Shown: piece after piece, positions 51,038-60,441 of the stretch
Numbering within the stretch: the first letter of the stretch is position 1
Layout: every line of letters begins with the position of its first letter
DNA from: a virus
Taxonomy: Duplodnaviria > Caudoviricetes
Length of the DNA: 64,000 bases
Direction: 5' to 3' (one strand)
Virus record (IMG/VR): IMGVR_UViG_2703719088_000001
Span: 1-64,000 of that record
Made by a program: the position numbers and the translations under genes
Notes under the pieces: generated by a model
The model's database searches: none
What the model was told of the DNA's origin: nothing
The model's input: only the letters and a program-made list of their open reading frames with translations

Positions 51038-51133
51038 GTATGTTATTTGCACTGATATAGTATTTTTATATTGTATAATATATTATCTATGTATAACTTT
51101 ACAGCCCTAACGCATCACGGATAAGCGTATAAT

Positions 51134-51802
51134 ATGTCAAAAAGAACATTATTCGTTCTGGCCAACTCGGTTTGGCGTGCGGACGATTTCCTGCACAGCG
51201 GGAACACCAATCCTCTTCGCACAGACCACTATCTCTTCGCTACCCGCGAGGAGGCGGAAAAGAAGGCGCAGCAGATGGAAGTGGATGATGACATCTACAA
51301 CGATGGTACTATCTTTGAAGGCGAGATCGAGGAAAGCGAAATCCTCGAACTGACAGGTTATGAGAAGATTGAGGATTTTGACGAGGCTATGGCCGAACCT
51401 TACTCCACTAAGCCGTATTATAAATGCTATGGAGAGGAAGAAAAGGGAAGTGTAGCCGATGCAATCATCGAAAATCATATTCATGAATATGATGCCAACT
51501 GCCCGAATTATGACTTCAACAAGTCTCTGGACGGAGCAGTCCTTATCTTCTGGTCATGGGAACGCTATGTTGGATATGCCCGTAAATGCATTGAGATACG
51601 TTATGCATACAGCAACGAAAAGGAAGATATCCTCACAAAGAGGGATCAGACGTTTGTCGCCCAATGTGATGTGCTGCTGACATCTGAAGAGGTTGCAGCC
51701 TCTGATAATATCAAGGAATCCATCCGCGAGGCTCTTGACAGCCGTGCTCATTGGAAATGGACAAATCCTAATTTTGTCGAATTCTTAATTGACAAGTTCT
51801 GA
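51134..51802 (+). CDS. Acidic hypothetical protein
   Basis: 222-aa ORF after an AT-rich promoter-like region. Confidence 0.7.
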   Translation: MSKRTLFVLANSVWRADDFLHSGNTNPLRTDHYLFATREEAEKKAQQMEVDDDIYNDGTIFEGEIEESEILELTGYEKIEDFDEAMAEPYSTKPYYKCYGEEEKGSVADAIIENHIHEYDANCPNYDFNKSLDGAVLIFWSWERYVGYARKCIEIRYAYSNEKEDILTKRDQTFVAQCDVLLTSEEVAASDNIKESIREALDSRAHWKWTNPNFVEFLIDKF

Positions 51803-52032
51803 TGAGTAGATTCATCCTGCAACCCAGTAAAAAGCCTGGCTGGTGGGTGTGCACCGACACAGTGAACAATATCGTCTGCCGTTTTGAAGAACACAACTTC
51901 AACGGCACGAAGGATATTACGCTGCTCAACGGCGATACTTTCAAGACGACGGAAGAAGCCTTGAGATACCCGACATACCTGCGCGAGATGGCTGACTGGC
52001 TCATAGAAAACCACTGCAAAAAAATTATCTGA
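51802..52032 (+). CDS. Hypothetical protein
   Basis: 76 aa, translationally coupled (TGATG). Confidence 0.7.
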   Translation: MSRFILQPSKKPGWWVCTDTVNNIVCRFEEHNFNGTKDITLLNGDTFKTTEEALRYPTYLREMADWLIENHCKKII

Positions 52033-52244
52033 TGTACACTATTATCAAAGACGTAAAACGTGAGTGTTGGAAAAGAAACCTAACACTCACCGATGTCGCA
52101 AACAAAATGGGCATGATCAGGAACAACTTCTACCTGTGTATCAAGAATCCAAGTATCAGGTTGTCAACCGTTCATGCTATTGCCGATGCTATCGGCTGCA
52201 ATATTGCAGACCTTTTTCAATCATACTACGATGACGAAGAGTGA
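52032..52244 (+). CDS. XRE-family HTH regulator
   Basis: LTLTDVANKMGM...NPSIRLSTVHAIADAIGCNIADLF is a classic XRE pattern. Confidence 0.85.
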   Translation: MYTIIKDVKRECWKRNLTLTDVANKMGMIRNNFYLCIKNPSIRLSTVHAIADAIGCNIADLFQSYYDDEE

Positions 52245-52476
52245 AGCCGCACAGATACCTATGATGGGCATCCATCCTGACGACTTGATAGAAGACTGCT
52301 TCTACCTCAAAATGGCAGAGGAGGGACGTATATCGAAAGAGCAGGGTAGAAAGGCTCTTGAAAGACTCAAGGGCAGGGAGAACGAGCCTCATTACGAAGG
52401 CGCAATGCTCGTTGCTGGCTATATGATTGAGAACCTTGATAAATACGGAGCACCTTGCATTGATTGGTGCGAATAA
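52231..52476 (+). CDS. Hypothetical protein
   Basis: MTKSEAAQ start overlaps the end of the HTH gene. Confidence 0.6.
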   Translation: MTKSEAAQIPMMGIHPDDLIEDCFYLKMAEEGRISKEQGRKALERLKGRENEPHYEGAMLVAGYMIENLDKYGAPCIDWCE

Positions 52477-52805: not shown

Positions 52806-53069
52806 ATGAAGACTTATCCACTACTCGCGTATGAAGAGAACACCTTGTTCGTATGGGGTTCTTTCAATGAAAAGACATTCAAAGGAATGCCTGATGTCAC
52901 AGAAGACATGACTATTGTCGTCCAGAATGCCTCGAATCCGTTTGTCATCATCTATAACACGTCCGGCCTTACAAAGCAGGAAAAAGATGATGTTGTCAAG
53001 CAACACTGCAGCATGATGGCCAACGGATGCAATTTCCGTCCGGAGCGACAACTCCGGCTTTTTTATTAG
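52806..53069 (+). CDS. Hypothetical protein
   Basis: Hairpin-GGTACGAT-GTCTAACCC leader plus 87-aa ORF. Confidence 0.65.
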   Translation: MKTYPLLAYEENTLFVWGSFNEKTFKGMPDVTEDMTIVVQNASNPFVIIYNTSGLTKQEKDDVVKQHCSMMANGCNFRPERQLRLFY

Positions 53070-53177
53070 TTTATGAGTCGAATCCCGGCAGGCTGTGAAG
53101 CCGCCCCCTTCTTTTTGTGCAGAAGGCTGCATGAGTAGTTAAATAATACTAACGGCAAGATTTTTTCTGCCGAAAGA

Positions 53178-53211
53178 TTTGGAGTAAATATAGCAAATAC
53201 ATTATATTTAC
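53178..53211 (+). promoter_or_regulatory. Promoter (TTTG-N21-TATATTTA) overlapped by a 9-bp inverted-repeat operator
   Basis: GTAAATATA (53184-53192), a 10-nt spacer, then TATATTTAC (53203-53211): a perfect inverted repeat. Confidence 0.65.
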
Positions 53212-53271
53212 ATTGTAAACAAAAACAACAACCAAGACACCGGCGGCAACGGGTAACAGCGGCAGAAGATT

Positions 53272-53805
53272 ATGACAACAAAGGACACCACCATCAAGTA
53301 CACCTCCAAGTCAGGTAAAGATGTTATTGTGACAGTACATCGCAAGTATGGTGCATACATTGAGCATCATCACGACTCAGAAAACGGCATCGACTACGAC
53401 ACCAACGAGTTTGCCAATGACCAGAGCATAACGGTTGAGGTTCCCGGCGTTTGCAGATTTGAGACCAAGTACCTGCCGGATATGAAGCACCCCAAAATCA
53501 ACATGTACTATCTGAACAATGGCAGTGTATGTGTAGCCGTGCCTGACGAGATAGCCGAGCAGATCTTTGAGGCTGAGCGCGAGAGATTGACCGAGGAACT
53601 GTCACCTTCCGTCGTTGCAAGCATCCAGGAAGCAAAGACCGCCATCCGCAATGGTCGTGTAATGCCAAAGGCTGAGCTGAGTAATAAGCGCAAGGAATAC
53701 AACGACATTTGCAATGAAGGCGCAGAGGGCTACAACCCCTTCGATGGCTACCTGACAACTGAGTATGTTGAGCGTTTGAAAGCGGAATATCCCGAAAAAT
53801 TTTAA
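53272..53805 (+). CDS. Hypothetical protein, anti-CRISPR or anti-defence candidate
   Basis: First gene of a two-gene operon whose second gene carries an HTH. The candidacy rests on guilt by association. Confidence 0.6.
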   Translation: MTTKDTTIKYTSKSGKDVIVTVHRKYGAYIEHHHDSENGIDYDTNEFANDQSITVEVPGVCRFETKYLPDMKHPKINMYYLNNGSVCVAVPDEIAEQIFEAERERLTEELSPSVVASIQEAKTAIRNGRVMPKAELSNKRKEYNDICNEGAEGYNPFDGYLTTEYVERLKAEYPEKF

Positions 53806-53817
53806 AAACTATAAACT

Positions 53818-54303
53818 ATGCCACTTGACAGAAATTGCAACGCGATACCATATATCGCAGGGCGGATGATCGCCATCACCGAGCACTATGCCCAAAAAAA
53901 ATTCGGCCCGAACACCCTCTCGACAATGTTCCAGCACCCGGCCGGCACAATAGGTGTGTTCCGCCGCTACATAGATAAGGATGACGAGTATTACCGGGAG
54001 GTGGGAGAGGTCGAATTGCCTATCACGACAGCAAACGAGGTGGCCAAAAGCCAGATGTGGGTAGGCTACTATCATCAGACGGCCGCTTATGACGAGAGCA
54101 GTGACGCTCGTTTGCGTATCGGCAAGCGGATAGCCGACCTACGCAAGTCGGCCGGAATGACACAGGAGCAGCTTGCGACCAAGGCGGGCATCCATCAGGT
54201 CAACCTATCACGCATAGAGGCCGGGAGGTACGCTGTAGGGCTGGATATCCTTGACCACATCGCCCAGGCTTTGGGCGGAAGAGTTGATATCATCACCGAT
54301 TAG
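53818..54303 (+). CDS. Cas11c-like (Cas8c/Csd1 C-terminal) domain fused to an XRE HTH
   Basis: MPLD...PYIAGRMIAITE and LPIT...MWVGYYHQ align with the type I-C Cas11 motifs MSLD...PYLLGRLFAVLE and FP..M...F.IGYYHQ. C-terminal IADLRKSAGMTQEQLATKAGIHQVNLSRIEAGR is an XRE HTH. Confidence 0.8.
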   Translation: MPLDRNCNAIPYIAGRMIAITEHYAQKKFGPNTLSTMFQHPAGTIGVFRRYIDKDDEYYREVGEVELPITTANEVAKSQMWVGYYHQTAAYDESSDARLRIGKRIADLRKSAGMTQEQLATKAGIHQVNLSRIEAGRYAVGLDILDHIAQALGGRVDIITD

Positions 54304-54420: not shown

Positions 54421-55794
54421 ATGCCTATGGAAGATAACAAGAAAAGAATCAAAGAGATACTTTCTTCCTTCAATGTAAGGATAGAGAGTATCGAAGAGAA
54501 GGTGGGGCATTCGATTACATTGTACGAAGTCAAACCTTCACTGGGTGTGCGCATCTCCAAGATACGCAACCTGAAAGACGAGATAGCCATCGGTTTATCC
54601 GTCCCTGCTGTAAGAATTGTTGCTCCTCTGCCCAGCGGTCTCGTTGGTATTGAAGTGCCAAACAAGACCAGGCAGGTGATACCTATTTCGGATATCATCG
54701 AGTCTGAGGAATACATCGACTCGAAGGCAGAGTTGCCATGTGCTATCGGCAGGACAATCGCCAACGAGGTCTTTGTGCCGGATTTGGCCGACATGCCGCA
54801 TATGCTAATCGCCGGTGCCACAGGCCAAGGTAAATCAGTGTGCCTGAACACTATCCTTCTGTCTTTACTCGAAAGCAATTCACCAGAAGAGATGAAACTT
54901 GTCTTGGTCGATCCAAAGCAGGTTGAGATGTCTGCCTACGCATCGCTTCGTGACACGTATCTCGCTGCACCCGTTCTCACCGAAGCAGACAAGGCATATG
55001 CTATCCTATGTGATGTGGTGACGGAGATGGAGAGAAGGTATTCTATTTTGAACGAAAACGGGGTAAGGAATCTTGGTGAGTACAACATCCGCTATCCTGA
55101 CAGCCAGATGCCGTACATTGTTGTTGTCATAGATGAGTATGGAGACCTTGTCATGTCTGCCGGAAGAGAGTTCGAGAAGATTATCTGCCGCATAGCACAG
55201 AAAGCGAGAGCTGTCGGCATACATATGATTATCTCAACGCAGCGTCCGTCTGCGACAATCGTTACAGGTGACATCAAGGCCAACTTCCCGACACGTATGG
55301 CTTTCCGTACTGTCACAGGTGTTGACTCAAGGGTTATCCTTGACCAGACTGGCGCAGAAAAGCTGACAGGTAAGGGCGACTTCATCTACTACAGCGGTGC
55401 TGAACTGCTTAGAGGCCAGTGTGCCTTGACAACGATAGATGACATCAAAGACCTTGTTGCCCATATACATGAGCAGTATGCCGATTATGTGAATACCCCT
55501 ACATTGCAATGGGAGATAAGGGAAGAGTATCGAAGAACGCATCCGTCGTTGTTGCTGCAGATTGCTCAATACATTGCTGACTTTGATTATATCACGATGG
55601 ATATGATCGAAAAGAAGTTTGGGTTACGTAGTTCGTTTTCCTTGGAAAATACCTTGGAATTATCACGTGTCATCGCGTGTAAACGATATGACTACGATAA
55701 TTGGAAGACCGAAGATGGACATGTTGTCCTTGTTCACGACAAGAGCCTACTCCCTGAAATGGTAGCCCCATATGAGAATTTTTTGGTTGGGTGA
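54421..55794 (+). CDS. ftsK: FtsK/SpoIIIE DNA translocase (soluble motor plus diverged gamma-like tail)
   Basis: PHMLIAGATGQGKSVC Walker A, LVLVDPKQVE, YIVVVIDEY Walker B, IAQKARAVGIHMIISTQRPS and GAEKLTGKGD; no N-terminal transmembrane segment. Confidence 0.9.
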   Translation: MPMEDNKKRIKEILSSFNVRIESIEEKVGHSITLYEVKPSLGVRISKIRNLKDEIAIGLSVPAVRIVAPLPSGLVGIEVPNKTRQVIPISDIIESEEYIDSKAELPCAIGRTIANEVFVPDLADMPHMLIAGATGQGKSVCLNTILLSLLESNSPEEMKLVLVDPKQVEMSAYASLRDTYLAAPVLTEADKAYAILCDVVTEMERRYSILNENGVRNLGEYNIRYPDSQMPYIVVVIDEYGDLVMSAGREFEKIICRIAQKARAVGIHMIISTQRPSATIVTGDIKANFPTRMAFRTVTGVDSRVILDQTGAEKLTGKGDFIYYSGAELLRGQCALTTIDDIKDLVAHIHEQYADYVNTPTLQWEIREEYRRTHPSLLLQIAQYIADFDYITMDMIEKKFGLRSSFSLENTLELSRVIACKRYDYDNWKTEDGHVVLVHDKSLLPEMVAPYENFLVG

Positions 55795-55852
55795 TACCAT
55801 GCCGGGCAGAATCAGCCTTCTGCCCGGCAACCACTTATCTAATTTTAAAGCT

Positions 55853-56701
55853 ATGATTGGTTCTTTTGAAAAAGAGTTTGCCATGAAAAATCCTGGCAGA
55901 ACTCAGATTTTGCGCTTCATGCGTGAAGCACTGGACGTTGATGAGGTGAAGTGGGAGAGTCTTACCCATCTGAACCTCGTGTCTGTCGCCGAGCATATAC
56001 GTTCATGTGTTTCTCCGAACAGCGCGGTGACGTACCTGGCTATTGTGAAGGCTTTCCTTGCACAATACAAGGACGAAGGTGTCGTGCCATGCTCAAATCC
56101 AGCGAAGGCACTAAAGGCAAAGAAAGTGCCGCAGCAGAATGTGGCACTCACCCTTGACGAACTCAACAAGATTGAGAGGTACTACGACAGGCTTCTTGCA
56201 AAAGGAGGCCATCAAGCCGAGAAGGATGCTTTGACGCTCTTCCTGCTTGAATGCTTCTGTGGTGCACGTGGATGTGATGTTGAGAACATGACATTGGAAA
56301 ACATAAAGGATGGCAAGCTGACATATGTCTCTCAGAAAACACAGATATTGGCCACCATCCCCGTTCACAGACGGCTGGAAGACCTGCTATCCAGAAAACC
56401 GAAGAAGCAGTACACAGCATGTACGAAGAATAGGATTATCAAGCGTGTCGCTGAGAGATGTGGCATCTCCGATCCTGTGACCATATTCTATCACGGTAGC
56501 ATGCAGACAAAGCCAAAATACGAGTATCTTGGCACGCATACAGCCAGACGGACGTTCTCTTCCATCCTCGCCGCCAATGGCACACCAATCCCTGAGATAT
56601 CGCAGTTCATGGGGCATTCGGAAATCTCAATGACAGAGAGATATATTAAAGTGGACATGAACACCGTCTCACAGGCTGCGATGGCATTCTTCAATGCTTG
56701 A
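55853..56701 (+). CDS. Tyrosine recombinase / integrase
   Basis: Catalytic set CGARGCD (R), HTARRTF (HxxR) and MGHS...TERY (H, Y). ATG 55853 follows a hairpin at 55801-55828. Confidence 0.9.
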   Translation: MIGSFEKEFAMKNPGRTQILRFMREALDVDEVKWESLTHLNLVSVAEHIRSCVSPNSAVTYLAIVKAFLAQYKDEGVVPCSNPAKALKAKKVPQQNVALTLDELNKIERYYDRLLAKGGHQAEKDALTLFLLECFCGARGCDVENMTLENIKDGKLTYVSQKTQILATIPVHRRLEDLLSRKPKKQYTACTKNRIIKRVAERCGISDPVTIFYHGSMQTKPKYEYLGTHTARRTFSSILAANGTPIPEISQFMGHSEISMTERYIKVDMNTVSQAAMAFFNA

Positions 56702-59406: not shown

Positions 59407-60441
59407 TTATTTTTTTGCTATAACCACATTCAAAACTTCTTTTAAAAATTTTGCTATCTTGACGAGTTCCGGAATATCCTTATACTCATCTTCTCTACCA
59501 CAACACAAATCTTGTGTCATATTAAAGGTGTTGTACTGATAGTGTCCTGGATCTTCGTAGAATTTGCACAGCTCGACCAGTTCCTTGAACCATCGATCCT
59601 TGATTCCGCTCGGTATATCCTTATAGACACCCTCCTTCGCTTTAATTGCATCGTCGCAACCAGAATTGCTTATCAACGTCCATATCAGATGTGCGGCTAC
59701 CTTCTCGCTCAATTTATCAATACGCTTTGCCAGCAAAGCATCGTACTCCTCTTTGGTGATGTCGTGCCATTTGCCATCGTCGCCCTCAGTGCTATACATA
59801 TTCAAGTCAACTCGATCTCCTTCTGGAGTAATGACGTAAAATATACCTCTCGTGTCGAAGTCTCCGTGCTTCTTGTCCGTGAGGAAAGTCTGTGCAAAAA
59901 TCTTATACTTGCCTTTTTGGGGCATGTACGGCATTGTGATTGGGAACATTTCGTCGATGAAGCCTGTCCACGAACCATAGGTGTCAGACGGATTTTCCAC
60001 ATTGATGTAATACGCTCTATCTACATCGTGATAACTAACCTTGCCATCAAGCGTTTCCTCGCGGAACAGGCTCGACATTCTCGGACATTGTAGGCTCGAT
60101 TTCAAACCACGTTCTATCAGGCTCTCTTCTGGCTCTAACGAATGTACCTCAGTACCATTGGCTCTAACAAAGAAATCTTCATCATTAATAGGGGTAAGAG
60201 GTTGCCCTTCCATCAACCTAATCAGAATGTTCTTCGTCATACTGAAGCTAAAACCACTATGGCCATCCTCGCACAACGACTTGTAGGCTTTCAATGCTGA
60301 CTTGTAGCAGCTACACCCATAATCAAAATCCTCGCTATCAAAGTCGATGTTCGGATTCTCTCTCTTGCAGGCTATTCGGCATTCCTGCTCTGCCCAATTT
60401 GACATGCTCATATCTTTTCCTCTTTTTTGTATATAATTCAT
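59407..60441 (-). CDS. Conserved phage protein (DGHSGFSF...LTPI family)
   Basis: 344-aa ORF; the true start may be MSMSNWAEQE. Confidence 0.7.
   Translation of the reverse strand: MNYIQKRGKDMSMSNWAEQECRIACKRENPNIDFDSEDFDYGCSCYKSALKAYKSLCEDGHSGFSFSMTKNILIRLMEGQPLTPINDEDFFVRANGTEVHSLEPEESLIERGLKSSLQCPRMSSLFREETLDGKVSYHDVDRAYYINVENPSDTYGSWTGFIDEMFPITMPYMPQKGKYKIFAQTFLTDKKHGDFDTRGIFYVITPEGDRVDLNMYSTEGDDGKWHDITKEEYDALLAKRIDKLSEKVAAHLIWTLISNSGCDDAIKAKEGVYKDIPSGIKDRWFKELVELCKFYEDPGHYQYNTFNMTQDLCCGREDEYKDIPELVKIAKFLKEVLNVVIAKK

Follow-up and report, generated by a model that had tools for sequence, protein, structure and literature searches.

An acr-aca-like accessory operon in a Bacteroidota-type provirus: a viral Cas11c-HTH gene and an orphan gene as anti-defence candidates

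Acr-Aca fusions (AcrIIA1, AcrIIA13-15) carry an inhibitor domain and an autorepressor HTH in one polypeptide. Very few anti-CRISPRs are known from gut and rumen Bacteroidota phages. Aca proteins, of both the HTH and the RHH type, bind inverted repeats over promoters, and Aca12 is a domain of AcrIIA36 (PMC13551039). AcrIB4 of Listeria is a homologue of the Cas8b C-terminus (Cas11b) and has been proposed to replace Cas11 in Cascade, poisoning the type I-B complex (10.1101/2023.06.24.545427; 10.1101/2025.06.06.658234).

Here we analyse a two-gene operon in a window of 64,000 nucleotides, which is part of an 85,010-bp IMG/VR provirus record. We read positions 53178-54303 as a promoter-led, acr-aca-like and probably self-repressed accessory operon, which encodes the orphan protein p177 and a viral Cas11c-HTH protein and is a candidate for anti-defence; we give this reading a probability of roughly 0.55.

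Promoter, palindrome and setting of the operon

The region belongs to an accessory part of the provirus, the host being of Bacteroidota type. The following features were annotated:

53040..53066 (+): terminator-like hairpin and T-run, stem CCGGAGCGACAACTCCGG then CTTTTTTATT, closing the upstream gene (52806-53069)
53178..53181 (+): -33 box TTTG of a Bacteroidota-type promoter, in an ATTTGG block invariant in the alignment of homologous loci
53184..53192 (+): left arm of the palindrome, GTAAATATA, within the promoter spacer
53203..53211 (+): right arm of the palindrome, TATATTTAC, coinciding with the -7 box TATATTTA (53203-53210)
53207..53219 (+): a further, compact palindrome, TTTACA-T-TGTAAA, which overlaps the right arm as well as the predicted start of transcription
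53240..53263 (+): GC-rich leader CCGGCGGCAACGGGTAACAGCGGC, 24 nt, present once in the window, with 8 nt between its end and the ATG
53272..53805 (+): first gene of the operon, encoding p177, an acidic (pI 5.1) orphan protein of 177 aa; candidate anti-defence cargo
53818-54303 (+): second gene of the operon, encoding a 161-aa Cas11c-like + HTH_3 protein
53818..54102 (+): Cas11c-like domain, residues 1-95, with profile, Foldseek and hhalign matches
54130..54288 (+): Xre-type HTH_3 domain (Pfam HTH_3), residues 105-157, recognition helix IHQVNLSRIE; proposed autorepressor

The arms GTAAATATA and TATATTTAC are 100% complementary and form a perfect 9-bp inverted repeat with a 10-nt spacer at the promoter (53184-53211), exactly as the initial annotation had it. 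The same annotation had placed this repeat between and across the -33/-7-like boxes, which holds for the spacer and the -7 box, while the -33 TTTG (53178-53181) lies outside the arms. TTTG (53178) and TATATTTA (53203) are separated by 21 nt, and TATATTTA fits TAnnTTTG at 7/8 positions. Both boxes align column by column with the TTTG / TAnnTTTG boxes of 4-5 homologous loci and fall, in the alignment of the upstream regions, on the invariant ATTTGG and on TTAnCTTTGCA, i.e. on the canonical Bacteroidota -33/-7 pair. We therefore base the promoter call on homology, and the alignment with the TAnnTTTG box of the homologues identifies the right arm as the -7 box itself.

The combination GTAAATATA-N10-TATATTTAC is found once in the window and once in the whole 85,010-bp record, even at three mismatches, and single half-sites with one mismatch occur at chance level (15 found vs 11.5 expected). 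Shuffling of the 202-bp intergenic region gave any perfect 9-bp inverted repeat with a spacer of 0-20 nt in 66 of 5000 shuffles (1.3%), so that an origin of the palindrome by chance is unlikely, yet possible. About 20 distinct perfect 9-bp repeats are present in the window. The window palindrome covers the spacer and the -7 box, whereas most palindromes of related loci cover the -33 box; this usual -33 palindrome is absent from the window promoter. Conservation of the repeat in homologous loci had been set beforehand as a check, and the exact repeat was found in none of them. The 20 exact matches in viral contigs all lie in unrelated AT-rich sequences without related genes. A metagenome scan for promoter plus repeat found nothing. 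The compact palindrome TTTACA-T-TGTAAA adds a third GTAAA half-site and is a candidate for an alternative operator geometry. Also, a perfect 8-bp inverted repeat, TTCTGCCG / CGGCAGAA (53165-53172 and 53260-53267, 87 nt apart), encloses the promoter and the leader's end; only in read-through transcripts would it be of consequence.

Upstream, the hairpin at 53040..53066, terminator-like by its sequence, would insulate the operon from transcription arriving from that side. The preceding operon (51134-52476, +), which follows an AT-rich promoter region at ~51040-51100, encodes a 70-aa HTH_26 protein (52032-52244); this second small regulator could be an alternative binder of the palindrome. Directly 3' of the Cas11c-HTH gene lie an FtsK-like gene and a short tyrosine recombinase gene (54432-56701, +). 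The former encodes an FtsK/SpoIIIE-type ATPase without obvious membrane part, and the recombinase overlaps it. Between the HTH gene and the FtsK-like gene neither a clear terminator nor a clear promoter was seen, and with no evident terminator beyond 54303 the operon may extend into the FtsK-like and recombinase genes. About 5 kb downstream and on the opposite strand, a 344-aa protein (59407-60441, -) contains a Tad3 (type I Thoeris inhibitor) domain (Pfam, E 1e-22), a homologue of a known anti-defence family. No Cas match was obtained among the genes scanned at 50-63 kb; the Cas11c-like gene sits in an accessory operon of the provirus and not in a cas operon.

The two genes and their linkage

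The HTH_3 domain of the 161-aa protein was matched in Pfam with an E-value of 9e-13 and 48.5 bits against a gathering cut-off of 23, and the best Foldseek matches of the HTH are the controller proteins C.BclI and C.AhdI. For the N-terminal part, the 161-aa protein alone gave weak but consistent matches to the Cas8c/Csd1 C-terminus, below family cut-offs. The profile of the Cas11c-like family, searched against the PDB, matches the Cas11c chains 7kha_K and 9jhb_B of type I-C Cascades (E ~1e-5), and Foldseek returned 8g9t_K and 9jhc_A (Cas8c C-terminus and Cas11). In an hhalign comparison with a 609-aa cellular Cas8c the probability was 95.8% (E 8e-9), and the alignment starts exactly at the internal MALD... 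methionine of this Cas8c, which we take to be the internal Cas11c start. Moreover, the family profile scores above the family cut-offs, and a standalone 123-aa homologue of the domain passes the Pfam cut-off for Cas_Csd1. Judged by these matches, residues 1-95 are a Cas11c homologue, equivalent to the Cas8c C-terminal region from the internal start, and shorter than Cas11c (95 vs 124 aa).

The database version of the protein is a 145-aa product that begins at the internal Met 17 (53866 vs 53818). The conserved N-terminus matches the start of the Cas11c-equivalent part of Cas8c, which supports the ATG at 53818 (161 aa) and the view that the database gene call begins too late. A search for relatives of the Cas11c-like domain as long as Cas8c found none, and no close relative emerged among cellular Cas8c proteins. 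The closest metagenome relative of the 161-aa protein is 58% identical over the Cas11c-like domain only, and GenBank phages gave matches to the HTH domain only.

As initially described, the 177-aa ORF at 53272-53805 is followed by the 161-aa Cas11-HTH gene. P177 has no match in Pfam, PHROGs, NCBIfam or PADLOC and none in GenBank phages. It has 28 close relatives at 64-85% identity, and in an exhaustive profile search this orphan viral family comprises 52 cluster representatives, mostly of ~175 aa. Its structure is predicted with confidence (pLDDT 90); a fold search with PDB Foldseek, BFVD, VIA wide, ESM Atlas and a language-model atlas gave no convincing match, the helical C-terminal half being barely probed by it. 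The best fold match reaches a Z of 5.5, to PH-like folds over residues 1-109. An EHHHD motif was considered as a catalytic or metal site and rejected, as it is confined to the close subfamily and not conserved in the wider family; p177 is thus unlikely to be an enzyme. The initial annotation had put p177 forward as a prime new candidate for an anti-CRISPR or anti-defence protein. We found no similarity to a known Acr, inhibitor or anti-defence family, and in our analysis the Cas11c-like domain appears as the best anti-CRISPR candidate in the operon; p177 stays a reasonable anti-defence candidate, weaker than this domain.

The two cargo families travel together in many loci (loci and proteins of our collection are given as L and P numbers). 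Among nine p177 locus types in which p177 is not fused to an HTH, a Cas11c-like gene follows, adjacent or one to two genes downstream, in eight (the window, L007, L012, L015, L045, L044, L002 and L011), and L003 is a p177 locus without it. The p177 proteins of L044 and L045 are just 30-33% identical to that of the window. Cas11c-like genes without p177 occur in at least seven locus types (L004, L018, L021, L022, L046, L047 and L050), often downstream of p143, a third orphan family. P177 itself occurs alone or fused to HTH_3 (P0095, P0096); the p177-HTH fusions (L054, L055) are preceded by p143 and lack a Cas11c-like gene. The Cas11c-like domain comes in three forms: alone (98-138 aa), with HTH_3 (161-174 aa) and with an RHH/MazE-like tail (144-146 aa), the RHH assignment of the last form being weak only (RHH_7 E 0.09, MazE-type E 0.005) and not adopted. 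The cargo domains thus stay the same, whereas the DNA-binding domain may be present or absent and can be attached to either cargo, which is the pattern of self-regulating inhibitor genes.

P143 is zinc-ribbon-like, with an N-terminal MAKYTI..CGH and the motif LTGSEKQVAW, and lies upstream of viral Cas11c-HTH or of p177-HTH depending on the locus. Its genes are:

L046: 2544-2975
L004: 2259-2678
L055: 1750-2151
L054: 267-674

A different promoter type is marked by repeated CTTGATAAATGTT(A/T)GC and TTCAAGTGTTAA motifs (L003: 2800-2930; L018: 2690-2800; L102). It is common to a p177 locus and a locus with an RHH-tailed Cas11c-like gene, and these motifs may serve the RHH-like variants as operators.

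Related loci and the pairing of palindrome and recognition helix

The 24-nt leader in the 5' UTR hardly varies between homologous loci. When viral contigs were scanned with a degenerate 22-nt leader core, 46 loci were obtained (L057-L102), and in ~40 of the 46 matching contigs an AT-rich phage locus carries the leader before diverse, unrelated first genes. In these ~40 viral contigs the leader ends 8-15 nt before the ATG of the first gene, usually ~40 nt downstream of the TAnnTTTG box, so that promoter and leader are common to them. It stays constant while operators and HTH types change. The leader has no match in Rfam, and its interpretation as a structured RNA was rejected: alifold gave four invariant pairs with no covariation and no supported hairpin. 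It may act as a translation signal, or as an RNA or DNA site for a common factor.

The related operons contain one to four small genes, almost all without a Pfam family. One of these cargo genes under the same promoter-leader shell (L078: 3981-4505) encodes a PcrA/UvrD Tudor domain (E 3e-10), a domain which binds RNA polymerase. In most loci with enough downstream sequence, an HTH gene of one alignable family follows on the same strand 0.5-5 kb downstream. These HTHs align over their whole length with the window HTH, those that stand alone have 67-75 aa, and at least 25 viral loci combine a member of this one family with differing sets of upstream cargo. Several relatives place the HTH 4-5 kb downstream, where it closes a long early operon (SNF2, PAPS reductase/DUF3440, ParB); the family may thus be a general early-gene regulator and not a dedicated Aca.

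Every related promoter bears a palindrome, and the sequence of the palindrome tracks the recognition helix of the HTH:

Palindrome GTACCAAATA...TATTTGGTAC, helix QR(N/A)HI(S/A): nine loci (L015, L063, L069, L090, L079, L060, L074, L097, L099)
Palindrome with outer bases TTACC, helix SSTH: L096
Palindrome with outer bases ATACC, helix HQGH: L078
Palindrome with outer bases TGACC, helix QATH: L101
Palindrome TATTTG-N7-CAAATA, helix Q(A/Q)AHIA: L007, L091, L092, L093
Palindrome ATGTTnTAnAACAT, helix xSN: L068, L085

The nine GTACCAAATA...TATTTGGTAC loci span at least eight different cargo sets. Promoter and HTH hence stay coupled while the intervening genes are swapped, just as an operator-autorepressor pair predicts. 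The covariation of palindrome and helix could in part reflect common descent of promoter and HTH instead of binding.

At the window, both the palindrome and the helix HQVNLS are singletons. The helix IHQVNLSRIE (HQVNLS) occurs in no other protein that we retrieved, and the viral, genome and metagenome collections searched hold no close relative of the window HTH, which leaves the pairing at the window resting on a single locus. A new helix together with a new palindrome fits the family rule as a single case, and it is plausible, on the strength of this one locus, that the window palindrome is the operator of the HTH. Comparative evidence on architecture supports the acr-aca-like reading made in the initial annotation, with a shared promoter and leader, variable cargo, an HTH of one family and a palindrome that tracks the helix.

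Competing readings and comparison with known systems

In our preferred reading, the -33 TTTG / -7 TAnnTTTG promoter with its conserved 24-nt leader would drive the p177 and Cas11c-HTH genes and fire upon infection or induction. As the HTH product accumulates it would dimerise and bind the palindrome over the spacer and the -7 box, its site perhaps including the adjacent TTTACA-T-TGTAAA, and so repress its own operon. The Cas11c-like domain would most likely act on a type I-C Cascade of the host as a faulty subunit or decoy, in the way suggested for AcrIB4 and type I-B, and p177 would be co-travelling cargo that either is an inhibitor as well or assists the viral Cas11c. We infer DNA binding, repression and anti-CRISPR activity here from the observed sequence features, domain identities and comparative pattern. 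Several points weaken this explanation, among them these: the palindrome and helix of the window are singletons; the palindrome covers the -7 box where that of most relatives covers the -33 box; part of the palindrome is a promoter box, and AT-rich promoters form palindromes easily; and no host type I-C system is known for the provirus.

The palindrome may be a by-product of an AT-rich promoter and no operator at all, the operon then being constitutive or under another factor or site. One arm is the -7 box, a repeat of this kind arises in 1.3% of shuffles and about 20 distinct perfect 9-bp repeats exist in the window, and the repeat is not conserved in homologous loci, its exact copies elsewhere being unrelated AT-rich sequences. 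Still, we consider this explanation very unlikely, as the family-wide pairing of palindrome and helix makes an operator at the window promoter expected, and a replacement site is likewise expected where the ancestral -33 palindrome is missing. Unlikely, too, is an ordinary early or lysogeny circuit, in which the HTH would be a Cro/CI-like regulator, the Cas11-like fold its dimerisation or sensor domain and p177 unrelated to defence. It would agree with the long early operons that are headed by the same cassette and carry the HTH at their far end, and with the recombination genes adjoining the window operon. Against it, the Cas11c-like domain is also free-standing or joined to other tails, which speaks for a role of its own; the family includes standalone HTHs of 67-75 aa that do without any additional domain; and the genes between promoter and HTH are swapped with a freedom unusual in core regulatory circuits.

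A closer partnership of the two genes is possible but tentative. P177 and the viral Cas11c would then form a two-part module, in which p177 binds viral or host Cas11c, the pair blocks or hijacks the I-C Cascade and the HTH sets the dose. This is what the succession of p177 and a Cas11c-like gene in 8/9 non-fused p177 locus types would suggest, the more so as it holds in L044 and L045 despite the low identity of their p177, but Cas11c-like genes also do without p177 in at least seven locus types, and the p177-HTH fusions adjoin p143 with no Cas11c-like gene nearby. Extended to a whole uncultured group of Bacteroidota phages, the idea becomes improbable: promoter, exchangeable operator, leader and HTH would make up a portable shell for interchangeable anti-defence cargo, p177 and the viral Cas11c would be a two-protein inhibitor of the I-C Cascade, and the HTH could be fused to either.

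Should the self-repressed anti-defence operon of our preferred reading be real, it would reveal an Aca-like regulator family whose switching of operator specificity can be read from sequence, and the first type I-C counterpart of the Cas11 mimic AcrIB4. The orphan cargo families (p177, p143 and others) would become anti-defence candidates in gut and rumen Bacteroidota phages, and the shell of promoter, leader and HTH could be used to search Bacteroidota phages for new anti-defence genes.

Compared with the known acr-aca operons (Aca1-Aca14; e.g. acrIF8-aca2 of phage ZF40 and the RHH-type Aca14), the operon shares the promoter, the variable small orphan genes and the 3' HTH gene, as well as an inverted repeat overlapping the promoter and a regulator family that is kept while cargo is swapped. 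This likeness is one of architecture. The operon differs in its Bacteroidota -33/-7 promoter and in a 24-nt leader that is constant across HTH types, in an HTH that lies kilobases downstream in some relatives, and in cargo genes that are candidates only, without known Acr activity. With C.AhdI and C.BclI, the controllers of restriction-modification systems, the HTH would share the plan of a small Xre-type dimer acting on a palindromic operator at its own promoter; here there are no restriction-modification genes, and operator sequence and context differ.

Like AcrIB4, the window protein contains a small phage-encoded homologue of Cas11, the small subunit whose coding sequence lies inside cas8. 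In contrast to AcrIB4, this homologue is type I-C-like and not I-B, has diverged strongly from cellular Cas8c and is joined to a DNA-binding domain. The Acr-Aca fusions (AcrIIA1, AcrIIA13-15, AcrIIA36/Aca12) likewise combine inhibitor and HTH in one chain, here as a candidate; their domain order and families differ from those of the window protein, and here the same HTH appears in fusions with at least two families of cargo (viral Cas11c, p177) and with other N-terminal domains (P0051, P0063-P0066). New with respect to all these systems are the families p177 and p143, the I-C-type viral Cas11, the HTH family, the setting of a Bacteroidota promoter and the invariant leader.
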